Source: an uncultured Clostridium sp. (GTDB taxonomy: Bacteria > Bacillota_I > Bacilli_A > RF39 > UBA660). From it: a stretch of 64,000 nt of DNA. Made by a program: the position numbers and the translations under genes. The notes beneath the pieces are model-generated. The model saw nothing but the letters and a program-made list of their open reading frames with translations, was not told the DNA's origin and ran no database searches. Shown piece by piece: positions 13,321 through 37,617 of this stretch (position 1 is the first letter of the stretch; each line of letters opens with the position of its first letter). The stretch spans positions 21,857-85,856 of the forward strand of contig CAMNJQ010000059.1 of the NCBI GenBank assembly GCA_946541575.1. The letters are read 5' to 3'.

Positions 13321-13956
13321 TTACTCCTTTAAAACTTTTTTTGCTTCTTTAAAAAAATCACAATTCTCTTCAACTAATGACCAAAAATCTTTAGAATGAT
13401 TAGCATGAATCAAATGAGATAATTCATGCATAATTACATAATCAAGACAAAATAAAGGTTTTCTCATTAATTCCAAATTAAGAGTAACTCTTTTATCTTT
13501 AGTATTACATACACCCCATCTAGTAGTCATTTTTCTAATTGTTAAAGAAGGATATGGAATTTTTCTTGTAAATCTATTATAGCATTCATCTAAATGTTCT
13601 TTAAAAAGTATACTTGCTTGTTTCTTATACCATTTATCTATATCTGCATCTCTATTTACAAATACTTTTTCTTCTCCTAAAGTTATACCAGGAGCTGAAG
13701 TATATATTACATCATACCTTTTTCCTAAATACAAGAACCCTTCATTATTAACACATTTCTTTTTCATTTTATTAATCATATTAATAACTGAATCTTTATT
13801 TTTTATTATTATCTTTTCTATCTCCTTATTAGAAGTAAAAGTATTTGTAGTAACATAAATTTTTAAATCTTCTTTAACTCTTAAATATGTATTTTTATTA
13901 CCGAACTTTTTTGTAATAATTACTTCATAATCTTCATCATTTATTTCAACTTGCAT
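13321..13956 (-). CDS. YgjP-like metal-dependent hydrolase (DUF45 / M48-like)
   Basis: RWGVC...VIMHELSHLIHANHSKDFWSLV is the DUF45 HExxH signature. Confidence 0.8.
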   Translation of the reverse strand: MQVEINDEDYEVIITKKFGNKNTYLRVKEDLKIYVTTNTFTSNKEIEKIIIKNKDSVINMINKMKKKCVNNEGFLYLGKRYDVIYTSAPGITLGEEKVFVNRDADIDKWYKKQASILFKEHLDECYNRFTRKIPYPSLTIRKMTTRWGVCNTKDKRVTLNLELMRKPLFCLDYVIMHELSHLIHANHSKDFWSLVEENCDFFKEAKKVLKE

Positions 13957-18429: not shown

Positions 18430-21400
18430 TTAATTCCAAACGTGATCCTTATAAATAGTACTTGTAGGAGTATCTTTAGTAATTGAAGTTATACCAACAG
18501 TATCTCCTTTAGCATACATTCTTTTACTAATTGAAATATCGTTAAAATCACCAATATTTAGATTTTTAGGAGTAACAAGTTCTTCTAAATAATTATCATT
18601 TATATGTAATCCAAGGCTTCTATTATCAATTAAAACATAACTTAAATCTAATCCACTTAAATCTATTCTTTTTGCATTATTAATTCCAAGTAACATTCCA
18701 TATACTCCATTGCCTAATGGATCAATACTACTCAAGTCAAAATAGCTTAAATCTAAGTTTTCAATCATATTTGAATATTTAAACATATAATACATACTTT
18801 TTACGTTACTTGTATCAAATGAACTAAAATCTAAGCTCCTAACATTAGGAATATCATAAAACATATAATCCATTTTTGTAACATGAGATGTATTAACATT
18901 TTTTAAATTTATTTCTTCATAAGAGCCACAAAACATATCTTGAGAATCAGGTGAAAAAATTGAGTTTTCTAAATTTAACTTTTTTATAGTTCTATTGCAA
19001 TATCCATTATCCATATTGAAAAGAAAAGCAGCTTTTTCATAATTTGAAAAGTCTAAATTACTAAGTTCAAGTTCTTCTAAGGATGAACAATTAGAAATCA
19101 TTCCTTTAAAAGTCTGAACCTTCCTTATATCTAAGCCATTTAAATTAATCTTTTTTAAGCTAGAACAACCATTAAATAGATTTGACATATCAGTAACATT
19201 TTCTGTATCAAAATCTGAGAGATTTATTTCTTTAAGTTTAGTAAGTTGATAAAATGCTTGATTCATATCTTCAACTAAAGAAGTATCGACTCCTGTTAAA
19301 TTAATAGTTTCTACATTTCTCGTATAATAAAATGTGAATACCATATATTTACCAAATTTAGCATTAGACACATTTAGATTTTTCAAACTTTCATTGTCAC
19401 CACCAAACAATTCTCCAGTTAAACCATAACCATTATTATAATTTGAAAAATCAAAGTTAGACAAATTTAAATCTCTTAGATTGTTCATTTTGTAAAACAT
19501 ATAAGAAAATCTAGTTACATTAGATGTATTAAACATACTTAAATCAAGGCTTTCAATATTTGTACAATAATTAAACATATAAGACATATCATTAACAAAA
19601 AAACTTGAAATACCATTTAAATCAATACTACTAGCATTTGTAAAATTACTAAACATATAGCTAGAATTTGGATGTAAATATATTACATTAGCTTGAGAAT
19701 AAACAAATAAACTTCCATTATCTTCCCATAAATAAATAGGATAAGTTGAATTTTCAAGAGAAACTATTGTAGTTTGAGATAAGTCACTAGGTTCTACATT
19801 GGTTCTTTTAAAAGAAATGACATTAGATTTATTACTTACTAAATTATTAAATTGTTGTCCTGGATAAAACATTGTTATAGCTTCAATCCAAATTTGATTT
19901 TCTGTTGAAGACGTAATAGAAGTATAAAAATTATTATTTTCATCAGAATAAGTTTCACTAAGTTGAATAGTTTCACTAGAAGAATTTATTTTAGGTGTTT
20001 TAATTTTAGCTAATTTAGTAGTATTAGTTATTATTTGATTAAGTCCATTAGTTACAATTTTACTCAAATCAAAGCTTCCTAAATCAAGCTCACTAATATT
20101 ATTACAATTATAAAATAATTGACTCATATTAGTAATATTTGAAGTATCCCATGTATCTAGTCCAATTATTGTCTTTAAAGACCTACTATCAGCAAATAAT
20201 CCTTGAATATCTTTTGTTCTACTTAAATCCCATCCAGTTACATCTATCTCTTCTATAGGAGAGTTATTTCCAGCCCAATTTCTTGATACCCAATGAATAA
20301 AGCTTTCTGGAATTATCCAGTTTCTAGCAGAGATTTTTTTTAGGCTAGTTGTATTATAAAAATGCCCTCCACCTGAATTAGATAAATTACTAAAATCAAA
20401 GTTATCCATATTTACTTCTAATAAATTATTATCATTATAAAACAAAGCATTTAATTCTAAAACACTTGATGTATCAAAATATCTTAAATCAAGGCTTTTT
20501 ATATTAGTCATATTATGAAACATCATGTTTAAATTAATAACATTAGATGTATCAAAACTACTTAAGTCTAATTCTTCTACTTTATTAACCCCATAAAACA
20601 TACCTACCATATTTATAACATTTGATGTATCAAAACTAGATAAATCTATATTTTTAGTTTGACTATTATTAAACATATATGACATTGAAACTACTGGTTT
20701 ATCATTAATTTTCGAGCATAACTTTGTTGTTATATCTTCCGTCGATGTTGGATTAGTTAATCTCACTCCCCATCCATCAGTTGTAATGTTTGTCCAATCA
20801 CTAGAACCATTTTCTTGCATATATCTATATGTATATTGCCCATTTACATATTCTGATCCTTGAACTAGTTCTCCGTCAAACATACATAAATTCTCTTTTA
20901 CTTTTGAAATTACAACATTTGAATTAATATTTATATTGAAAAGTAAAGCTGCTTTAATATTAGGTATAGAAATAATTCCAATTAATAGCAAAATAGATAA
21001 TTTAACAAATTTATTATTTCTTCTATAAAATAATATTCCTAATACCATAATAATTATTAACACTACAAAAATTGTCTTAGACATATTTTTTAACGTATCA
21101 GGTACACTTAAATCTTCACTAAATAATTTTAATGTTACTGAAGTATTGCTTTCTATTTTAGCACTTCTATATGCTTCTTTTGGAGCTTCATTTTTATAAG
21201 TTACTGTTAAATATAAAATACTTTCTTTTCCTTTTTTTACGACATCAGAGTCTTCCACTTCAATTTTATAATCAATATATTCATTATTAGATGATATATC
21301 ATTATTTATTTCTAGATCATCTGAAGAATTATTATTAACAACTAATTTATATTTAACATAGTCATTTATATCATAAAGCTTTATATTTAAAACTACATCC

Positions 21401-21555
21401 AAGTTATTAAAAGATGCTTCTTCCAATTCTTCTGCATTATCAGATTTATCAATTAATTCTATAGACTTTATTATTACATTTTTGGAATTATCTTCAGCCA
21501 ATACTGAAATTGGTAAAATAATTAAAAAGCATAAAAACAATAACAACTTTTTCAT
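18430..21555 (-). CDS. large surface protein with DUF285/BspA-type leucine-rich repeats
   Basis: Signal peptide MKKLLLFLCFLIILPISVLA. Many ~26-aa repeats of the form DLSSFDTSNV.NM..MF. See findings for the internal TM pair. Confidence 0.8.
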   Translation of the reverse strand: MKKLLLFLCFLIILPISVLAEDNSKNVIIKSIELIDKSDNAEELEEASFNNLDVVLNIKLYDINDYVKYKLVVNNNSSDDLEINNDISSNNEYIDYKIEVEDSDVVKKGKESILYLTVTYKNEAPKEAYRSAKIESNTSVTLKLFSEDLSVPDTLKNMSKTIFVVLIIIMVLGILFYRRNNKFVKLSILLLIGIISIPNIKAALLFNININSNVVISKVKENLCMFDGELVQGSEYVNGQYTYRYMQENGSSDWTNITTDGWGVRLTNPTSTEDITTKLCSKINDKPVVSMSYMFNNSQTKNIDLSSFDTSNVINMVGMFYGVNKVEELDLSSFDTSNVINLNMMFHNMTNIKSLDLRYFDTSSVLELNALFYNDNNLLEVNMDNFDFSNLSNSGGGHFYNTTSLKKISARNWIIPESFIHWVSRNWAGNNSPIEEIDVTGWDLSRTKDIQGLFADSRSLKTIIGLDTWDTSNITNMSQLFYNCNNISELDLGSFDLSKIVTNGLNQIITNTTKLAKIKTPKINSSSETIQLSETYSDENNNFYTSITSSTENQIWIEAITMFYPGQQFNNLVSNKSNVISFKRTNVEPSDLSQTTIVSLENSTYPIYLWEDNGSLFVYSQANVIYLHPNSSYMFSNFTNASSIDLNGISSFFVNDMSYMFNYCTNIESLDLSMFNTSNVTRFSYMFYKMNNLRDLNLSNFDFSNYNNGYGLTGELFGGDNESLKNLNVSNAKFGKYMVFTFYYTRNVETINLTGVDTSLVEDMNQAFYQLTKLKEINLSDFDTENVTDMSNLFNGCSSLKKINLNGLDIRKVQTFKGMISNCSSLEELELSNLDFSNYEKAAFLFNMDNGYCNRTIKKLNLENSIFSPDSQDMFCGSYEEINLKNVNTSHVTKMDYMFYDIPNVRSLDFSSFDTSNVKSMYYMFKYSNMIENLDLSYFDLSSIDPLGNGVYGMLLGINNAKRIDLSGLDLSYVLIDNRSLGLHINDNYLEELVTPKNLNIGDFNDISISKRMYAKGDTVGITSITKDTPTSTIYKDHVWN

Positions 21556-21626
21556 AATATACCTCTACTATATATACTATCTATTATACTTACAATTATA
21601 AGTCAGTAATTAAAATAAATCAACAA

Positions 21627-21650
21627 ATAAAAAAGACTAGAAAATCTAGT
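21627..21650 (-). terminator. intrinsic terminator closing the six-paralog operon
   Basis: Minus strand GACTAGATTTTCTAGTC followed by a T-run. Confidence 0.75.
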
Positions 21651-21661
21651 CACATGCATTA

Positions 21662-22492
21662 TTATTTATATTTTCCTATTTCCTTTCTTAAATATTTATA
21701 TCCATAAGAATCTATTCCATAATTAGACATGATAGCTCCCCTATTGCCATCTTTATTAATCATTAATTCTTCTATTACTTTCTTTATATCTTCTTTTGAT
21801 TTAACTTTATCAATAAGAGCCAAAGTTCCTTCCATAGAAGAAAGCTGTATAACACAATCTCTTGTAAAATCAGTTATGTCTTCTTCTTTCTCCTCACAAA
21901 GTTTCATAAATCTTTCAGCTTTAATATTATCTAAACTACTACAATCAGCAGTTCTTCTAAAATCTTCAAAATCATTATAATCGTCATAAGCCATTATATA
22001 ATCTTTTGTGTAACCCTTTAACTCATTTAAATGCTTTAAGCTAAAATCTTCTTCTTTATTTGCTTCTTTCATATACAAATACTCTAAATATAAAGGCAAA
22101 GTATCATCATATTCATTAGGTATATAAAAACTAGAATCATTAAAATCAGGACTATAGCTTGATAAAAGCATTCCCATATAAAACACTAATTCCCTTTTAA
22201 ACTCATTTTTTGGCTTATGAGAAGGAAATTTAATAAATCTCTCTTCTTCAAAAGAATCAGGAACTTGAGTCAAAGTGTATTTTAAAAAGTTACTCTTCAT
22301 TATTTTAATCTTCTTGCTTGTAAGAAACTCAATTGCTTTATCAGGTAAATAAACTTCAATATGTTCTGGAGTAACATCTATTTCATCCCATGAACTTAAA
22401 CTATTATCCTTTTTATACTTAGGTAAATTAGATTCTTTTAATTCTTTTGAAACATTATAAACATCAAATTTCTTCCCAAATACTCTACTCAT
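21662..22492 (-). CDS. paralog P1 of the six-gene family, HExxH-degenerate
   Basis: Starts MSRVFGKKFDVYNVSKEL and ends IDSYGYKYLRKEI. KRELVFYMG aligns to SHELGHIP of P5. EYDDTLPLYLEYL aligns to EYSEGLPIFMEYL. Confidence 0.7.
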   Translation of the reverse strand: MSRVFGKKFDVYNVSKELKESNLPKYKKDNSLSSWDEIDVTPEHIEVYLPDKAIEFLTSKKIKIMKSNFLKYTLTQVPDSFEEERFIKFPSHKPKNEFKRELVFYMGMLLSSYSPDFNDSSFYIPNEYDDTLPLYLEYLYMKEANKEEDFSLKHLNELKGYTKDYIMAYDDYNDFEDFRRTADCSSLDNIKAERFMKLCEEKEEDITDFTRDCVIQLSSMEGTLALIDKVKSKEDIKKVIEELMINKDGNRGAIMSNYGIDSYGYKYLRKEIGKYK

Positions 22493-22493
22493 A

Positions 22494-23321
22494 TTATTTT
22501 CTCCTCATATCTATTTCTTTTCTTAATCTCTTAAAACCATAAGAATCAATACCAATACTATTAATAATTGCTTGTCTATTGTTATCTTGATTTAATATTA
22601 AATCATTTAATAGCTCTCTTATACTATTTTTATCTAAATTCCTATCTATAAGCTGTAAAACAGCATCTAAAGAAGAAATAGGCATTAAATTTTCTAATGT
22701 GACATTCAAAAACTGTGACTCAGTTTTATTAAATTCTTCATTTTCTTTACTATTTTCATCATAATCATATAAAAATAATTCTCTATTTTTATCTGAAAAT
22801 CTAATATCTTGAAAATTTTTATAAGATTTTGCATATCTTTTAGCATTATATTTTAGTTCATTAATATGTTTAATACTGAAAATATCATCTTTTCCAACTT
22901 CTTTTAAATATAAATATTCTAAAATTAAACTAATTACATTTGAATATTCACTTGGAATATCATTATCTGTATATTTTTTATCCTTATTTACTGAAGATAA
23001 CATTTCACCTAAAAAGAAAACTAATTCCCTTTTATATTCTTCTATAGCATGTATTCTAGAAAAATACATTGTTGGTTCTTCTTTATCCGAAAGAAGATAA
23101 GCTGATTTAATAACAAATGGAGAATTAACTATTCTAATAGGATTATTTTCAATTATCTTTAAAGCACTATCAGGTAAATAAAATTCAATTTTTGAAGGAC
23201 AATCTATAACTTCATCCCAAGAAGTCTTGGTATTATCTTTTTTATAATCAAGTACATTTAAATCATTTAAATATCTTGAAAAAGAATATACATCTAAACT
23301 TTTACCATATAATCTACTCAT
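22494..23321 (-). CDS. paralog P2, HExxH-degenerate
   Basis: Start set at MSRLYGKSLDVY (23321), 4 nt after the P3 stop. Contains KRELVFFLGE and ends IDSYGFKRLRKEI. Confidence 0.7.
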   Translation of the reverse strand: MSRLYGKSLDVYSFSRYLNDLNVLDYKKDNTKTSWDEVIDCPSKIEFYLPDSALKIIENNPIRIVNSPFVIKSAYLLSDKEEPTMYFSRIHAIEEYKRELVFFLGEMLSSVNKDKKYTDNDIPSEYSNVISLILEYLYLKEVGKDDIFSIKHINELKYNAKRYAKSYKNFQDIRFSDKNRELFLYDYDENSKENEEFNKTESQFLNVTLENLMPISSLDAVLQLIDRNLDKNSIRELLNDLILNQDNNRQAIINSIGIDSYGFKRLRKEIDMRRK

Positions 23322-23325
23322 AAAA

Positions 23326-24150
23326 CTACCTTTTTCTAACATTATCTATTTCTTTTTTTAATCTCTTAAATCCAAATGTTTCTATTCCTTTATGCTTCAA
23401 AATTTCTTCTCTATTATGTTCAGGATTAGATATTAATTCATCTAATAAATTTTTATATTCATCGACATTATTAAACCTATCAATGATTTGTAATGATGCA
23501 TCCATTGATGAAAGTGGTACCAAACTTTGTAACGTTTTATATAAAATAGCTTTCATATTAGAATTATCATATTTTTCAATTCTATCATCACTACCAAATA
23601 TTCTATCTTCATTTTTAGCTTCAATAAATTTTTGATATGAATCATATATCTTAACAAAACTTTTAGAATTGGATAATAATTCATGAAGATACTTAAGTGA
23701 AAAATTAGATTCATTGTTATTTTCCTTATTATATAAATAATTAAGTATTAATGGAATTACATCATGATATTCACATGGAATAGTAAAATCATCAGGCATC
23801 TTATCAGGTGAATAAGAAGCAAAAATTCTACCCAAAAAGAAGATAACATCATTTTGATATTCCCTTATTATCTTACTTTTAGGAAAATACATAACAGGAT
23901 CTTCAGAACTATCTTTTGGTAAAAAAGTTAATGGTTTCCTAATAAGTATAGATTTTGATAAAACTACAGGTGTATTAGTAATTATTTCTATTGCTTTATC
24001 AGGTAAATACTTTTCTATATATGAAGGTGTATTCTCAACTTCTTCAAGAGATATTTTAGTCTTATCATAATTATAATCTATTAATTCTTTTTCCAATAAA
24101 TATTTAGAAACATTATATACATCATCACTTCTACCATATAATCTACTCAT
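23326..24150 (-). CDS. paralog P3, HExxH-degenerate
   Basis: Starts MSRLYGRSDDVYNVSKYL. Contains YQNDVIFFLGR and ends IETFGFKRLKKEI. AGGAG RBS lies inside the end of P4. Confidence 0.7.
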   Translation of the reverse strand: MSRLYGRSDDVYNVSKYLLEKELIDYNYDKTKISLEEVENTPSYIEKYLPDKAIEIITNTPVVLSKSILIRKPLTFLPKDSSEDPVMYFPKSKIIREYQNDVIFFLGRIFASYSPDKMPDDFTIPCEYHDVIPLILNYLYNKENNNESNFSLKYLHELLSNSKSFVKIYDSYQKFIEAKNEDRIFGSDDRIEKYDNSNMKAILYKTLQSLVPLSSMDASLQIIDRFNNVDEYKNLLDELISNPEHNREEILKHKGIETFGFKRLKKEIDNVRKR

Positions 24151-24152
24151 AA

Positions 24153-24908
24153 CTATCTCCTAATCTCTTTTCTAAGTCTTTTAAATCCATAAGTATCCAT
24201 ATTCATCTTATTTATAACTTCTTCTCTATTATGATTTTCATTATTAATAAGTTCTTTGATTAATAGTTTTAATTTATCTTCATCATTAACAATTTCATCA
24301 GCAATTTGTAATGTCATGTCAAAAGATGATAGTGGTACTAGAAACAATAAACTATTTTTTAAAAATCTTTCTTCATTAAAAACTTCAGGATAATTATGAA
24401 AATTTTCATATATTTTTACATATTCTTTAGCATTCAACTTTAAATCTTGTAAATGTTTATCACTAAATCTATCTTCTTTTCCTATTTCTTTTAAAAATAA
24501 ATATTCAAGAGTTAATGGTAATACATCACTATATTGACATCTTATATCAAAATCATCTGGAACATAGTCAAGATTTATTCTTCTTAATAAATCACCAGCG
24601 AAATATACTAGGTCTCTACGATACTCTTCTTTCATTTTCTTAGTAGGAAATATAATAGTATTTTTCTCTTCCCCATATCCACTATAAATAGTATCTTTAA
24701 TAAATAAATTCCATGCAACTTCAATTTGAGCATCTTTTAAAAATAATGCTGCATCTCTTGGAATAAATTTCTCAATTATTTCTAAAGATTTATCCATTTT
24801 CTCAAATGAAATAATTGCATTATCTCTCTCATATTTTTTATTATAGTTTTCTAATAAATCTTTAGAAATACTATATATGTCATTTGTTCTACCATACAAT
24901 CTACTCAT
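24153..24908 (-). CDS. paralog P4, HExxH-degenerate
   Basis: Start set at MSRLYGRTNDIY (24908), directly after the P5 stop. Contains YRRDLVYFAGD and ends MDTYGFKRLRKEI. Confidence 0.7.
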   Translation of the reverse strand: MSRLYGRTNDIYSISKDLLENYNKKYERDNAIISFEKMDKSLEIIEKFIPRDAALFLKDAQIEVAWNLFIKDTIYSGYGEEKNTIIFPTKKMKEEYRRDLVYFAGDLLRRINLDYVPDDFDIRCQYSDVLPLTLEYLFLKEIGKEDRFSDKHLQDLKLNAKEYVKIYENFHNYPEVFNEERFLKNSLLFLVPLSSFDMTLQIADEIVNDEDKLKLLIKELINNENHNREEVINKMNMDTYGFKRLRKEIRR

Positions 24909-24909
24909 A

Positions 24910-25764
24910 TTACCTCGATAATCTCTTACATTCTTCAATTACTCTTTCGCATCCGTCAGTATCGATAGATAGATTTTCAGCTGTTTCAATCATTGATTGT
25001 CCTTTAATCACATATTCTATCTCATCACCAACAGCTTTTCTATCATCTTTCATTCTATCAACAAGTTGTAAAGCAAATTCAAGTGATTCTAAATACTTAT
25101 AATAGTCTGCAAAAAGTTGCATATGATAAAGCCTAATATCATCATTTGGATTTTCAATATTCTTATATACATTCATAATATCACGAGCACCAGATTGTTC
25201 TATTGGAAGACGTTCAAACAAAAAATAATCTAGTGCATCTTCTGGATCATTGTGCCTTTTAAGTTCAGATAAATATTCCATAAAAATTGGTAATCCTTCG
25301 CTATATTCTAAATATGAATTTCTAATTAGATCAAGTTCTGGAATATGTCCAAGTTCGTGAGAATAACTAAGCTGATCAGTTACACACAAATCTTTTTTAG
25401 GTAAATGCATAATATAGTGCATAGAACCATTAATTTGTTTATCATACTCTAAATAAGCATCACCTGTTGCTTTAGTCTTATCTCTAACTACTTTAATTCC
25501 TTCTACTTTATCTTCAAAAAAATCTATAATAAAATTATTTTCAAAAATTTTTAAAGATCTAATGGAAAATCCTTTCAAGCTATCTTCTTTAATAGGGATT
25601 TTTCCATCTTTTGAAGTAGGAACATCATATCTAGTAATTTTTCTACATAGTCTAAAAATATCTTTTCTATTTGATTCATCATAAGAATTCTTAAAAGTCA
25701 AATTAAGTCTTTTTAAATCCAAATCAAACTTAGCTATTTCCAGTTTAAAATCTTGTCCTCTCAT
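24910..25764 (-). CDS. paralog P5, putative gluzincin metallopeptidase (HELGH intact)
   Basis: HELGH is encoded at 25345-25359, with conserved E in FMEYL 22 residues after the second His. GGGGGG RBS upstream. The C-terminus LQLVDRMKDD...IDTDGCERVIEECKRL aligns with P1-P4. Confidence 0.7.
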   Translation of the reverse strand: MRGQDFKLEIAKFDLDLKRLNLTFKNSYDESNRKDIFRLCRKITRYDVPTSKDGKIPIKEDSLKGFSIRSLKIFENNFIIDFFEDKVEGIKVVRDKTKATGDAYLEYDKQINGSMHYIMHLPKKDLCVTDQLSYSHELGHIPELDLIRNSYLEYSEGLPIFMEYLSELKRHNDPEDALDYFLFERLPIEQSGARDIMNVYKNIENPNDDIRLYHMQLFADYYKYLESLEFALQLVDRMKDDRKAVGDEIEYVIKGQSMIETAENLSIDTDGCERVIEECKRLSR

Positions 25765-25824
25765 ATTAACCCCCCCACTAAAAAAAATATTATAAAATTA
25801 AATAATAAAATATACAAATAATTT

Positions 25825-26619
25825 TTATAATTTTAATATTTTATTACATTGAGATGTATCGATTTCTAGTGTTTCTTTAATTTCTCTTAAAGTTTTTTCA
25901 CCATAAACAAATTTATCAATCTCACTATTAACTTTATTTTGATCATCTTTTGCTCTATCTATAAGTTGTAATGCATATTCAAAAGACTTAATGTATTTAT
26001 ATGATTCAATCATGCCATATATGTAGTACTGATCAACATAAGAGCCATTATTCTTTATACGTTTTTTTTGTTGAAAATAACCTTGAGCTTCTTTTTTGAT
26101 TGCATCAAGCCTAATATCAATAAAATTTTTATAAGCATTTTTTTTATCAAGAGATAAATTTGCCAAATACTCAAAATATATTGGAATGGTTTCTAAATAC
26201 TCATAGTACTCTAATCCATTTTTTGAAGGATTAATAAAAGATGGAATATGCCCAAATTCATGAGAAGTAGCAATGAAATCAGTATCTTTAAAATCTCTAT
26301 TAGTAACATAAACAATTTGTTTTGAAGAATTACCATATATTTGAGCATCACCATTATAAAAATCGCCCTTTTTTATTTGAGTCTTAGGAATTCTTTTCAT
26401 ATAAAAAGAAACAGTATCTTTTCCTAGCAAAGAAATTTGATCTAAAAATACTTCTTTTATCTTAGAGAAATTAAATGATGTTGGTTTATACTTTATAGAT
26501 TTTAAACCACATATTTGTTTGCACACATCATAAGGATCATCTTCACATGGCATAAAAATGGAATTATATAATTCTACATGTCTTTTAAATCCTAAAACCT
26601 CTTCTTTATAATTAATCAT
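25825..26619 (-). CDS. paralog P6, putative gluzincin metallopeptidase (HEFGH intact)
   Basis: HEFGH is encoded at 26248-26262, followed by IPIYFEYL. Start set at MINYKEEV (26619) after a GGGGGT RBS. It lies 68 nt downstream of frr. Confidence 0.7.
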   Translation of the reverse strand: MINYKEEVLGFKRHVELYNSIFMPCEDDPYDVCKQICGLKSIKYKPTSFNFSKIKEVFLDQISLLGKDTVSFYMKRIPKTQIKKGDFYNGDAQIYGNSSKQIVYVTNRDFKDTDFIATSHEFGHIPSFINPSKNGLEYYEYLETIPIYFEYLANLSLDKKNAYKNFIDIRLDAIKKEAQGYFQQKKRIKNNGSYVDQYYIYGMIESYKYIKSFEYALQLIDRAKDDQNKVNSEIDKFVYGEKTLREIKETLEIDTSQCNKILKL

Positions 26620-26686
26620 AATACTACCCCCATTTATTCCGAGTATTATACCACAATTCTTAATATTTTTCAAATAAAAAGAAGAA

Positions 26687-27232
26687 CTAAACGCTCATTA
26701 ATTCTTCTTCTTTTACTTTTAACATTTCTTCAATTTTTTTATTGTACTCATTTACTAAATCTTGAACTTCTTTATCTTTAGATTTTTCTACGTCTTCAGG
26801 AAGCTTAGCTTTTTCAATTTCTTCCATAATTTCTCTTCTAATATTTCTAACTGATACTTTAGCTTCTTCAGAAATAGCTTTAACTTGCTTAACAAGTTCC
26901 TTTCTTCTCTCTTCAGTTAAAGGTGGAATTATAATCCTAACTGTTTCACCATCGTTATTAGGAGTAAATCCAAGATTAGCTTCAAAAATCCCTTTTTCAA
27001 TAGCATGTAAACAAGATCTGTCATATGGTTTAATCAACAATTGTCTTGCTTCAGGAACTGAAATAGTAGCTAATTGTTTCAATGGTGTATCAACTCCATA
27101 ATAAGAAACCATTACTCCATCCAAAGCACTTGGGTTAGCTCTTCCTGCTCTAACAGTAGCAAATCTTTTTTCAAGATTATCTAATGCTTTAAGCATTTTT
27201 TCTTCTGCTTGTTCAATATAATTTTCTTCCAT
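26687..27232 (-). CDS. frr: ribosome recycling factor
   Basis: LDNLEKRFATVRAGRANPSALDGVMVSYYG...IPPLTEERRKELVK is canonical Frr. Confidence 0.95.
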   Translation of the reverse strand: MEENYIEQAEEKMLKALDNLEKRFATVRAGRANPSALDGVMVSYYGVDTPLKQLATISVPEARQLLIKPYDRSCLHAIEKGIFEANLGFTPNNDGETVRIIIPPLTEERRKELVKQVKAISEEAKVSVRNIRREIMEEIEKAKLPEDVEKSKDKEVQDLVNEYNKKIEEMLKVKEEELMSV

Positions 27233-29567: not shown

Positions 29568-29596
29568 ATGCGCTTGTTTAAAGGGGTTTGGTTATT

Positions 29597-30595
29597 ATGA
29601 CATTAGATGCAGAGGAAATTATTAATTATTATAAAGATAAATATGGCTATGTTACAGATATAGATAGTATAATTGAATTTTTTAAGCAAGACAAAACAAT
29701 TACAAATAAAGAAAAATCAGAAATATTACTAAGTATTTTAAGATGGAACTTAAAAATTGATAAAGAAAATAAAGAAAAATTAAAAGGATTCAAGAAAAAA
29801 GAAGAAAGACAAGAAACAAAAGAAATAAATAATCCAACTCTAGAAATAGATAAAAAAGAATCTGAATTTTTTGAAGCTTCTTCATATATTCATTCTATAA
29901 AAGAATGTGATGATGATGATTTTATTACAGAAATACTACCAACCATATATGATAACAACTATGAAAGTATAATTGGATCAATATTATTATATTTTTTAAG
30001 GGAATTATCTCTTGCTAATGACATGTTAGCAATAGAAACAAACGAAGAAGATCAATTATATCTTAAAAATGTTATCAAAAGAAATAAAGAAATAATTAAC
30101 ATTATAAAAAAATATAATAATGAAGAAGAAAATGAAACTACATTAAATACTACGCAAGAACATAATAAATTAATATTCTTAAGAAAAAAGAACTCTTCAT
30201 TATATATTAAAGATGATTTAGATAATACAGCAACAGAAGAAGATTTACTACCAATATTAAATGACATAATAACAGGAAATTTCACAAAAGAAAAAAGATT
30301 TCATAACAATGACGATTTAAAAGGGCTTTCAGCAATAAGAAGAAGAGATTCAAGAATTATTTTTGTAAGACTTAATAATAATATAATTTTAATTCTAGGA
30401 ATACTAGTAAAAAGATTTCAAAATCCACAAACATATAGAGATATGTTAAAAGCAAGAAACAAAGAATTTAAATTACAAAAAGACATTTTAAAAGAAAATA
30501 TAAATAATGAAGAATTTCTAAATTGTAATAAAGAAATACAAGAAGAAATAATTAAAGAATTAAATTCTAGGAAAAAAATACTTAAGGAGGCTTAA
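29597..30595 (+). CDS. hypothetical protein with embedded RelE/ParE/Gp49-like toxin-fold segment
   Basis: ATG at 29597 after AAAGGGG. Residues encoded at ~30161-30472 (LIFLRKK...LLPILNDI...LKGLSAIRRRDSRIIFVRLNNNIILILGILVKR...) resemble the Gp49/HigB-type pattern L.G..ElR....yRi.y......ivil.gf.KK. Confidence 0.45.
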   Translation: MTLDAEEIINYYKDKYGYVTDIDSIIEFFKQDKTITNKEKSEILLSILRWNLKIDKENKEKLKGFKKKEERQETKEINNPTLEIDKKESEFFEASSYIHSIKECDDDDFITEILPTIYDNNYESIIGSILLYFLRELSLANDMLAIETNEEDQLYLKNVIKRNKEIINIIKKYNNEEENETTLNTTQEHNKLIFLRKKNSSLYIKDDLDNTATEEDLLPILNDIITGNFTKEKRFHNNDDLKGLSAIRRRDSRIIFVRLNNNIILILGILVKRFQNPQTYRDMLKARNKEFKLQKDILKENINNEEFLNCNKEIQEEIIKELNSRKKILKEA

Positions 30596-32647
30596 ATGGA
30601 AAGATTAAAAAAATACATAGAACACTTCTATGATAAGAAAAAAATACCAACCGAGTTAAGTAGTGATGAAATTGAAGAATTAGAGTTTTTAAATGACTTT
30701 GTTAAAACAATAGATTTAAAAAATATATATACTATTTTAAATTGTAACAAAAGAAATTTTGTAATATCTGCAATCATTTCAAATAAAAATCATGAACCGA
30801 TTTCTTTATTAAAAGACAAAATAAATAGGTTGGATAATTCATTTTTCACATGTACTGATTACAATGAAATATATGAATTATATAATTCTATAATTATTTT
30901 TATAGAAAAGAATGAGTTTCAATTAATTGAAAATATTTCACCATTTGTAGAAAACAATGATCAAGATTTTAATAAAGAAATTGAAGAAAAAAATTTATTG
31001 AATGATGTAAATAAACTAAAAGAACAACTAAAAAAATATACAAAAAATGAAGAGCAAAGAAAAAACTTAATAGATTTATTTCTTAACTATAGTTATGAAT
31101 TAACTTTTTCATTAGTAGCAACTTCTGTAATAAATGAAGCAGCAACATCTTCAAATAGTAATCTACTTAGTCAAAAAAATATTTCATCCCCTATTCAGAA
31201 TAATAAACTAAACTATTTATCAATAAATAACAATGATAGTAATATAGATCTAACAGATAAAAATTGTTTAAGAAGAGTAAATGATTTAATAATGAATGCT
31301 GCACATTTTAAAGATTTATTTATATCAATGCAAAATAGAATAAAAGAAATAGAAAATTTGCCAATTACAAGAGAAAAAGAAAACAGCAAAATAACAAAGA
31401 AGAAAGAAAGAATATTAGCATATTTAGATTCATTTGATTTAAATAAACCAATAGATTTATCAAACTCATTTTTAGAATTAATTGATAATCAAAAATTAAA
31501 ATATTTCATAATTGGAAAAATAATAAGACTAAATTTAGAGCATCAAAAGAATACAATAATTGAACTAGACAAAGAAAAAGAATTATCAAAAATAGAACTA
31601 CTATTTAAAAATAGTAAATTCTCATTTGAGAAATTACTAAAAGAACAAGTTGAAAATTTAATAAAATATGGAAACATAGATAGCATTGAAAAAATATTGA
31701 CAATATTAACTGATTCAGATATTAAATTTAATGATAATTTTCCAATATATGATATTCTTCTATTATCAAATCAATCAAATGTTGCAAATATAATAAAACT
31801 ATATAATGTAAACTTAATAAACGAAGAATTTATAATTAAAAATCCAAATATATTTGTTGACACAATAAGCGAAGATTTAAAGAAAATAACTTCTATAAAT
31901 GAACCAAAATATAACGAATTAAATAATAATATAACTCAGTTAAAAGAAATTAAAATAAATATAAATGAAATTTCAAAAAAAGATAGTAAAATTCTTTTAA
32001 TGAATAATAAAGAATTAGAAACAGCTATTACATTAATTAAAAATTATCATTTAGACTATTCGACAAGTAATAACTTTGAATTAATAAGTAACATTAAAAA
32101 CATAGAAATTGCTGATAAATTCATTGAACTAGGATTAGGAGATTATTTAATAACTCACCCATATTTAATTGCAAAAAGAGCAAATAATAGATTAAAGCGT
32201 ATGCAATTATGTAAAATGTTAGAAATACCATTAATGCAAGATGGAAAAATAAATTCTAAAATAACAAGCCAAGAATTTAGAATTGGAAAAAACTATATAA
32301 ATGATGATGACATTGAATCTTTTATATCAAATTCTACACCAAGATATCAAAATCTTGATTGTCTAAAAATTTTAGTAGAAAATTATGATTATAATTACGA
32401 ATTAGAAGAAATTAAAGAGTTAGAAAAATATAAAACTAATGATTTAGAATATAACATTAATGGAATAATAATTTCAAGAAATAAAGTATTAAGAAACTAT
32501 AGCATATTATCCAAAAATATCACTATTTCAAATGACGTATTACTATTCAATTCAATTATTTATGGAAGTGTATTGGATGATGAGCAATTAGATATGTTAA
32601 GCAACTTAATAATAAATAAACAAAAAGAAAAACTGATAAATAGATAG
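30596..32647 (+). CDS. hypothetical 683-aa helical (repeat-like) protein, translationally coupled to the upstream gene
   Basis: AAGGAGG RBS. The ATG abuts the upstream TAA (TAAATG). K/N/E/I-rich protein with no catalytic motif recognised. Confidence 0.5.
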   Translation: MERLKKYIEHFYDKKKIPTELSSDEIEELEFLNDFVKTIDLKNIYTILNCNKRNFVISAIISNKNHEPISLLKDKINRLDNSFFTCTDYNEIYELYNSIIIFIEKNEFQLIENISPFVENNDQDFNKEIEEKNLLNDVNKLKEQLKKYTKNEEQRKNLIDLFLNYSYELTFSLVATSVINEAATSSNSNLLSQKNISSPIQNNKLNYLSINNNDSNIDLTDKNCLRRVNDLIMNAAHFKDLFISMQNRIKEIENLPITREKENSKITKKKERILAYLDSFDLNKPIDLSNSFLELIDNQKLKYFIIGKIIRLNLEHQKNTIIELDKEKELSKIELLFKNSKFSFEKLLKEQVENLIKYGNIDSIEKILTILTDSDIKFNDNFPIYDILLLSNQSNVANIIKLYNVNLINEEFIIKNPNIFVDTISEDLKKITSINEPKYNELNNNITQLKEIKININEISKKDSKILLMNNKELETAITLIKNYHLDYSTSNNFELISNIKNIEIADKFIELGLGDYLITHPYLIAKRANNRLKRMQLCKMLEIPLMQDGKINSKITSQEFRIGKNYINDDDIESFISNSTPRYQNLDCLKILVENYDYNYELEEIKELEKYKTNDLEYNINGIIISRNKVLRNYSILSKNITISNDVLLFNSIIYGSVLDDEQLDMLSNLIINKQKEKLINR

Positions 32648-37541: not shown

Positions 37542-37617
37542 GTTCTCGTAGCTCAGCAGGATAGAGCAATCCCCTCCTAAGGGATAGATGTGGGTTCGAG
37601 TCCTACCGGGGACACCA
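37542..37617 (+). tRNA. tRNA-Arg, anticodon CCU
   Basis: Folded by hand. Acceptor GTTCTCG/CGGGGAC, D arm GCTC-AGCAGGATA-GAGC, anticodon arm ATCCC-CTCCTAA-GGGAT (CCT at positions 34-36), T arm with GGTTCGAGTCC, encoded CCA. TGATATAAT promoter sits just upstream. Confidence 0.9.

Follow-up and report, generated by a model that had tools for sequence, protein, structure and literature searches.

A predicted family of half-size M3-like peptidases and its retained dead paralogs in uncultured Bacilli

What do six similar, closely packed genes encode when only two of them carry a recognizable zinc-peptidase motif, and what might keep the other four in place? The question is raised by a minus-strand block at 21662-26619 of the window, our name for the whole 64,000-nucleotide (nt) stretch of contig CAMNJQ010000059.1, from an uncultured Clostridium sp., that was analyzed. 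The six genes, P6-P5-P4-P3-P2-P1, run head to tail between frr and a DUF285 gene, with pheS and pheT beyond the latter, downstream from P1. A first-pass annotation, made from the sequence alone, had described them as a catalytic pair followed by an expanded set of pseudo-enzymes of a family that it could not place. Comparing sequences, predicted structures, and related loci, we find it very likely that P5 and P6 represent a new family of small M3-like metallopeptidases and that P1-P4 are retained pseudo-peptidases of the same descent.

Results

All six proteins are homologous

The coordinates of the open reading frames (ORFs) confirm the layout first described, six minus-strand ORFs of 251-284 amino acids (aa), with gaps of 1, 4, 2, and 1 nt among P1-P5 and of 60 nt between P6 and P5. 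As starts we took ATG codons with a Shine-Dalgarno-like motif, and public gene calls use identical ones. P5 and P6 are 34% identical (E = 3e-27), and P1-P4 share 36%-42% identity with one another. Between the active and the dead group, pairwise BLAST is marginal (E = 0.04). An hhalign comparison of an 18-sequence catalytic alignment with a 33-sequence dead alignment gives a probability of 96.5% (E = 8e-10) and is confident over the C-terminal 125 columns; in global mode, the catalytic and dead families align with a probability of 97.7% (E = 9e-12). A hidden Markov model (HMM) built from 28 diverse members of the catalytic type only detects each dead copy: P2 at 1e-13, P4 at 2e-12, P3 at 1e-6, and P1 at 2e-6.

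The predicted structures agree with these scores. AlphaFold2 (AF2) models of P5 (predicted local distance difference test [pLDDT] 94.1, predicted template modeling score 0.92) and of P2 (pLDDT 90.8) have the same order of elements: N-terminal helices, three strands, a long helix, a second helix, and five C-terminal helices. The alignments also bear out the sequence motifs that had been proposed, with EY..LP..EYL, LQLIDR, and a C-terminal ID(S/T).G..(K/R)L..E common to all six and an N-terminus MSRLYG..DVY shared by P1-P4. By all of these comparisons the six are true paralogs, with a similarity far beyond chance; the hhalign, HMM, and element-order results thus uphold the homology of P1-P4 with P5 and P6 that the first-pass annotation had assumed.

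For residue-by-residue comparison, we preferred the HMM and hhalign registers, together with the secondary structure of the models, over a MAFFT alignment of the six proteins. The latter was rejected: it placed the active-site helix of P1-P4 against the strand region of P5. The register of the active-site helix differs by two to four residues from method to method.

A gluzincin-type site in P5 and P6 and its loss in P1-P4

In the P5 model, HExxH lies on the helix that follows the three-stranded sheet. Among 28 diverse members, E156 and E163 are invariant and H136, E137, H140, F181, R185, and Y224 are at least 90% conserved (residue numbers here and below are those of P5). E156 follows the second His at a distance of 16 residues in P5, and the corresponding distance in P6 is 19. 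The top sequence match of the family profile in the PDB, a weak one (E = 0.11), is 3sks_A, a putative oligoendopeptidase F, in which HEAGH pairs with HExxH and CEIHSMSME with E156...E163. In the M3 enzyme thimet oligopeptidase, zinc is bound by His473, His477, and Glu502, and Glu509, which hydrogen-bonds His473, gives the E-x6-E spacing (PMC3268031); H136, H140, E156, and E163 mirror these four residues. From the alignment to 3sks_A and from this arrangement, we conclude that E156 is probably the third zinc ligand and E163 the second-shell Glu.

P5 and P6 thus have the HExxH motif and the putative ligand Glu on the following helix that define gluzincins (clan MA, subclan E), which P1-P4 do not, and, as judged by alignment, the ligand Glu plus second-shell Glu (E-x6-E) of family M3. 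The coordinates first given for HELGH and HEFGH are exact (Table 1), and the gluzincin signature claimed for the two proteins is found to be invariant family-wide, but the Glu that had been chosen as ligand was E163, and E156 is the likelier one.

The best-supported register for the dead copies, obtained from HMM alignments with an invariant Gly as anchor, sets HExGH against [FY][FY]xG[MERD], which means that the catalytic Glu has been lost from P1-P4 as well. Whichever register is used, their equivalent of the active-site helix contains no His. Further changes are E156 to D or N, R185 to H or L, and Y224 to P or Q; E163, F181, S227, and the LQLIDR motif are mostly retained (P3 has N at E163). 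Read from these alignments, the dead copies have lost the whole catalytic apparatus, beyond the two His. The earlier claim that both His are gone therefore stands, but the replacements proposed for them (R or N for the first, F or Y for the second) belong to a register that is not the best supported.

A separate case is P0113, a member of a third (HELTH) subgroup, which has TRGLAQ instead of HExxH and keeps the EYSEVLP..EYL helix. Judging by its sequence, the zinc site was lost independently in this member as well.

A predicted fold close to M3B peptidases and no library match

Scans of P1-P6 against Pfam, NCBIfam, PADLOC, and PHROGs returned nothing significant. The Peptidase_M3 (PF01432) and NCBIfam PepF models match none of the six at E up to 1, nor any of 28 diverse relatives, among which the Pfam scan gave scattered sub-threshold matches (M48 in two; M78, SprT, and DUF6782 in one each). 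There is accordingly no library match that would put all six in a well-characterized family with known noncatalytic members. Where the first-pass annotation could not name the family, the libraries could not either, and only the fold search and the weak profile match point to M3B oligoendopeptidase F.

In the PDB, a Foldseek search with the P5 model reaches E < 0.001 only for the M3B enzymes 3sks, 2h1j, 3aho, and 3ahm (E = 1e-4 to 3e-4, probability 1.00, template modeling score [TM-score] on the query 0.54-0.61, targets of 544-565 aa). The M32 carboxypeptidases come next and are much weaker. The P2 model finds weak zincin-type matches only (MATCAP, anthrax lethal factor, M32), none of them significant, as expected for a diverged dead copy. 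A viral structure library yielded generic zincin cores only, again none significant. A profile restricted to the P5 subfamily matched only lipocalins in the PDB, which we discarded as spurious; 3sks came up only with a broader profile.

We also searched 1.84 billion representative proteins exhaustively with an HMM, which gave 100 matches. The full-length ones are ~245-305 aa, apart from a 388-aa outlier and some fragments, and no long M3-like protein is among these ~100 relatives. The two-domain architecture of M3, at ~550-700 aa, is thus not that of P1-P6, which have 251-284 aa, and the fold similarity of the P5 model is to M3B. Since the family shares the metal-site logic and the predicted fold of M3 and has neither its sequence-model matches nor its architecture, we file it near M3 and not in it: on sequence and model, it is a new family of stand-alone, half-size proteins related to the M3B catalytic domain. 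Literature searches found no description of it, and cluster look-ups returned no protein names. As far as the libraries and papers searched show, what is new here is the family, its half-size M3-like architecture, and the retention of three or four dead paralogs per operon; the pairing of an active peptidase with a dead paralog is known.

The dead copies are under purifying selection

We estimated the ratio of nonsynonymous to synonymous substitution rates (dN/dS) by the pairwise Nei-Gojobori method, gene-wide, in closely related metagenome pairs. It is 0.18 for the P5 type (284 codons), 0.21 for the P2/3 type (277 codons), 0.12 for the P1 type (partial, 79 codons), and 0.24 for the P4 type (partial, 44 codons). 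Dead and active copies are thus alike and appear to be under similar purifying selection; the test of selection on P1-P4 that had been proposed gives no indication of decay. Across the 33 sequences of the dead family, 13 columns are invariant and 26 near-invariant, and conservation is highest at the N-terminus and in three helices: the former active-site helix, the Glu helix, and the C-terminal one. With a homologous fold, lost catalytic and metal residues, and purifying selection, P1-P4 have the properties of pseudo-peptidases.

The rate of change is nevertheless very different from that of the flanking genes. Between metagenome-assembled genomes (MAGs), orthologs of all six genes are 33%-58% identical, against 80%-91% for frr, pheS, and pheT and 62%-76% for psd, pssA, and a hydrolase gene in the same MAGs.

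The array recurs in a narrow clade

Relatives are found only in MAGs of uncultured, low-GC Bacilli from rabbit gut, roe-deer reticulum, sheep rumen, cattle rumen, and human (Hadza) gut; genes of the dead type occur in five of 185,579 species-representative genomes. In at least five of these MAGs, the array lies in the same order between frr and pheS, with two to four dead copies. The layout is cleanest in loci L024 and L025: hydrolase, frr, P6a, P6b, P5, three dead copies, pheS, pheT. In other loci, the orthologs are likewise ordered P5, P4-type, P2/3-type, P1-type (P3 of the window is a co-ortholog of P2), and the P4 orthologs in L001, L003, L006, and L009 are 46%-58% identical. Metagenome contig GCA_016648615.1 resembles the window in having four dead copies followed by a large gene, there of 1060 aa. 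The split of active and dead copies is two to four in the window and three to three in L024, L025, and L001. At every locus examined, the gene directly 5′ of a dead copy is of the P5 type or is itself a dead copy, and the two overlap or are 1-4 nt apart; in the more distant lineages of L008 and L010, a P5-like gene stands alone.

The comparison divides the first-pass account of a catalytic pair with an expanded pseudo-enzyme set. The intact site of P5 and P6 and the conserved, dead state of P1-P4 hold, but the expansion is not specific to this window: P6, P5, and two to four dead copies recur in fixed order in the related MAGs.

A third catalytic subtype, with HELTH or HELSH, lies at a second locus of the same MAGs (L012 8001-8870, L013 5876-6721, L014 7920-8789), directly upstream of uppS, cdsA, and rseP. 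In L012, infB, rbfA, and a ThiF-like gene are on one side of it and uppS, cdsA, rseP, and smc on the other. In Bacillus-type genomes, frr is followed by uppS and cdsA. Here the frr...uppS linkage thus appears broken, with family genes on either side of the break, which fits an ancestral array split by rearrangement.

Several of these loci carry additional genes. The DUF285 protein of the window is very large and has a signal peptide; another large DUF285 gene occurs in L006 (1060-4494), between P6 and P5, and none is present at the P1/pheS position in L024, L025, L001, and L003. DUF285 genes are adjacent to or inside the array in several genomes, but L024 and L025 have none, a pattern that suggests an insertion hot spot. 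In L001 (5762-9847; the same in L007 and L015), from a rabbit-gut MAG, four genes are inserted between the P6-type copies and P5: a 312-aa protein without family match, a 442-aa AAA_5 ATPase, a 306-aa DUF7192 protein, and, in the opposite orientation, a 231-aa WG-repeat protein. This insert may be an uncharacterized ATPase module. L010 (10855-11938), from a distant Hadza-gut MAG, has one family member, and 3′ of it come genes for a 277-aa and a 107-aa protein and then pheS; the 277-aa protein has a weak Cas13-ApeA-type PADLOC match (E = 2e-4), and the two may be a small toxin-antitoxin-like or defense pair at the same hot spot. No significant PADLOC match was found for the inserts in relatives (AAA_5 plus DUF7192, DUF285, and the 277-aa plus 107-aa pair).

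Layout of the locus and expression signals

The features of the array are collected in Table 1.

Table 1. The six-gene array, its candidate expression signals, and its neighbors (window coordinates)
Feature	Position	Strand	Description
frr (ribosome recycling factor)	26687..27232	-	conserved upstream anchor; context, outside the system
Promoter-like site	26645..26673	-	TTGAAA, 17 nt, TG-extended TATAAT; between frr stop and P6 start
P6	25825..26619	-	264-aa predicted active mini-M3-like metallopeptidase; HEFGH 26248-26262; GGGGG Shine-Dalgarno-like motif
P5	24910..25764	-	284-aa predicted active mini-M3-like metallopeptidase; HELGH 25345-25359
P5 Glu sites	E156 25297-25299; E163 25276-25278	-	
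P4	24153..24908	-	251-aa dead paralog; YFAGD at HExGH site; E156 to D
P3	23326..24150	-	274-aa dead paralog; FFLGR at HExGH site; E156 to D, E163 to N
P2	22494..23321	-	275-aa dead paralog; FFLGE at HExGH site; E156 to N
P1	21662..22492	-	276-aa dead paralog; FYMGM at HExGH site; E156 to D
Intrinsic-terminator-like hairpin	21625..21651	-	GACTAGA-TTT-TCTAGTC (stem 21635-21651), then T run TTTTTTATTT; 3′ of P1, closes six-gene unit
DUF285 (BspA-like repeat) protein	18430..21555	-	1041-aa secreted or membrane protein; between P1 and pheS; context only

The locus is probably a six-gene, self-promoted operon, to judge from the signals at its two ends. The single terminator that had been placed after P1 is there, as a terminator-like hairpin with a T run. 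Upstream, a strong promoter-like site agrees with the consensus at 11 of 12 positions, plus the TG, a match to consensus alone; promoter-like matches in this AT-rich region number 73, against 73.2 expected from shuffled sequence. At 25% GC, shuffled sequence produces such matches just as often, which makes this promoter a tentative one. None of P1-P6 has a signal-peptide-like N-terminus on inspection by eye, without a predictor. The frr genes of related loci match PF01765, and their products are 85%-87% identical.

The window has a GC content of ~25%, a strongly negative plus-strand GC skew throughout, and nearly all of its genes on the minus strand; the sole RNA gene detected in it is tRNA-Arg(CCT) at 37542-37617 (+). 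Its lowest-GC stretch (0.20), at 29588-32647 (+), holds two ORFs of 335 and 683 aa without Pfam match, which have reversed GC and AT skew and are divergent from the pssA-psd-hydrolase-frr block; L001 has neighbors of similar size (341 and 669 aa) at the same position. Downstream from pheT, at 13321-13956 (-), is a gene for a YgjP-like metallopeptidase (SprT-like fold), also found near pheT in L003 (10435-11044). It is unrelated to the array, yet it is another small HExxH protein nearby.

Discussion

Proposed: active peptidases with retained dead partners

We propose that P1-P6 are lineage-restricted, small (~250-290 aa), cytoplasmic proteins of gluzincin type whose fold would be a cut-down version of the catalytic domain of M3B oligoendopeptidase F. 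P5 and P6, from their sequences and models, are predicted to be cytoplasmic zinc oligopeptidases: H136 and H140 would be zinc ligands, E137 the general base, E156 the third ligand, and E163 the second-shell residue, comparable to Glu509 of thimet oligopeptidase. Their substrates would be cytoplasmic oligopeptides. P4, P3, P2, and P1 would be old paralogs from which the catalytic site is gone while the fold is kept, maintained by purifying selection. By analogy with known pairs, they may serve as noncatalytic partner subunits, completing or gating a cleft that the half-size enzyme leaves exposed and supplying the lid or the substrate-selecting half that such an enzyme would otherwise be without. 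The tight packing of the genes makes translational coupling possible. Indirectly, the neighboring positions of the genes (1-4 nt apart), their constant order, and their strict co-occurrence speak for such a complex. As a whole, an operon of mini-M3-like peptidases with retained pseudo-peptidase partners is our best explanation, to which we would give an even chance; the hetero-complex of active and dead copies that it includes is, taken by itself, a tentative idea drawn from analogy, more doubtful than the rest.

The M3B enzymes PepF and Pz-peptidase A (3sks, 2h1j, 3aho, 3ahm) are the closest known relatives of P5, as its best and sole significant structural matches, with 3sks_A also at the top for the family profile. 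Both groups have HExxH on an active-site helix followed by a helix with E-x6-E, and both are cytoplasmic (the window proteins putatively so), without signal peptide. The differences are in size (~545-565 aa in M3B, against 251-284 aa here, where no Peptidase_M3 or NCBIfam model fits), in the distance from the second His to the ligand Glu (24 residues in 3sks, against 16-19 in P5 and P6), and in the dead paralogs that accompany the window proteins in their operon, unlike M3B. The N-terminal part of PepF, approximately the first 200 residues as gauged from the alignment offset of 3sks_A, has no counterpart in the window proteins. The M3A enzymes thimet oligopeptidase and neurolysin, whose zinc site is compared above, are two-domain proteins of ~680 aa with a deep substrate channel; they did not turn up in the sequence searches. 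The M32 (carboxypeptidase Taq) family, which shares the helical gluzincin fold class of M3 and M2, is a second-tier structural match of the P5 and P2 models (TM-score on the query 0.37-0.42, E > 0.1), with proteins of ~500 aa.

The model for P1-P4 acting with P5 and P6 comes from other folds. TldD and TldE (PmbA) are a homologous pair in which only one member has the metal motif; activity requires the two together, and the active site is enclosed between them (PMC5810440). The likeness to the array lies in an active peptidase with a dead paralog. Unlike the array, TldD/E has an unrelated fold, an HExxxH plus Cys motif, and one dead partner instead of three or four, and its interaction has been demonstrated, whereas one between P1-P4 and P5/P6 is suggested by analogy. 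Pairs of the M16B family, often encoded by adjacent bacterial genes, combine an active beta-type with an inactive alpha-type subunit into a clam-shell peptidase; they differ from the array in their inverzincin HxxEH motif, their fold, and their size (~420 aa per subunit).

Several observations weigh against our proposal. No Pfam, NCBIfam, PADLOC, or PHROG model fits, and the M3 assignment relies on predicted structure and one weak profile match. Support for co-transcription of the six genes consists of consensus matches alone. No fusion of an active with a dead domain is present among the ~100 relatives. The P5-like genes of L008 and L010, which stand without dead copies, indicate that the active enzyme is not strictly dependent on them. 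Finally, the array evolves much faster than its neighbors, which is unusual for a housekeeping peptidase complex.

Alternative explanations

The strongest rival, which we consider rather unlikely, is that the dead paralogs act on their own, as peptide-binding, chaperone-like, or regulatory proteins or as enzymes with a new active site. They do have invariant or near-invariant residues of their own that the catalytic family does not share, besides the MSRLYG..DVY N-terminus, and residues fixed in the dead family (E94-E95, K97-R98, D114, K151-H152, and Y167) are candidates for a new site. The four dead types also keep separate orthologous identities across genomes, which suggests distinct roles, and P5-like enzymes can, as noted, exist alone. 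However, at all loci examined, the dead copies are tightly packed behind either a P5-type gene or a further dead copy, and a structure search with the P2 model turned up nothing significant to hint at a new activity.

A fast-evolving conflict system (anti-phage or toxin/immunity), with the active peptidases as effectors and the dead copies as sensors, decoys, or inhibitors, appears improbable. It would suit the low identity of the orthologs relative to the flanking genes, the variable copy number (one or two P6-type and two to four dead genes), the narrow clade (~100 clusters in the protein search and the few genomes with the dead type), and the variable insertions that the locus takes, DUF285 genes and the AAA_5 plus DUF7192 module among them. 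Searches for such a link gave little: PADLOC-DB v2 has nothing for five of the six proteins and for P6 only capP at E = 0.03, the AAA_5 plus DUF7192 insert has no significant match there, tblastn found no homologs in phage or plasmid collections, and nothing in the viral structure library is significant. The resemblance to ImmA/IrrE (M78) and CapP, small HExxH zincins that are often regulatory, is of the same order; the IrrE-like matches in that library are weak and cover the minimal zincin core only (TM-score on the query 0.2-0.3), the M78 model PF06114 matches none of P1-P6 and one of 28 relatives (E = 0.04), and the operon has no helix-turn-helix repressor gene, unlike the ImmA/IrrE pairing. 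Moreover, the array has a fixed chromosomal place between housekeeping genes in all MAGs, without mobile-element genes, which fits vertical inheritance, and a gene-wide dN/dS of ~0.2 shows no sign of positive selection at that resolution.

It is very improbable that P5 and P6 are not peptidases and use HExxH for some other metal-dependent hydrolysis or for a structural metal site; they belong to no sequence family and their activity is known as a prediction, but the full M3-type signature (HExxH, ligand Glu, second-shell Glu at +7) is conserved family-wide and the fold matches peptidases only. That P1-P4 are functionless, decaying duplicates under relaxed selection is scarcely credible and was rejected: all catalytic residues are lost, but the frames are intact and have Shine-Dalgarno-like motifs, dN/dS equals that of the active P5 type, many columns are conserved, at least five species-level MAGs preserve the order of the orthologs, and the P2 model is confident.

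Implications

If active peptidases with retained pseudo-peptidase partners are confirmed, they would form a new gluzincin family in clan MA, whose minimal, M3-like catalytic domain would be only half as large as any M3 enzyme characterized so far. With three or four dead paralogs per operon, this would also be an unusually rich bacterial case of retained pseudo-enzymes and a tractable system for asking how dead paralogs modulate an active protease and how a closed two-domain oligopeptidase might assemble from parts.

A bolder and unlikely version, again by analogy, is a modular, hetero-oligomeric "split" M3-type oligopeptidase in which P6 or P5 would pair with exchangeable dead lids that set the length or sequence specificity of the substrate. 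One catalytic core would then gain several specificities in a new clan MA architecture, possibly a model for the origin of the two-domain M3, M2, and M32 enzymes, and the rapid divergence of the array would stem from the co-evolution of subunit interfaces or from shifts in the peptides targeted.

The finding has a limited reach: the clade is narrow and uncultured, and the family is not the key to any long-standing question. For the organisms themselves, it would annotate a block of conserved "hypothetical" genes in uncultured Bacilli of rumen and gut, which probably depend on peptides for their nutrition.

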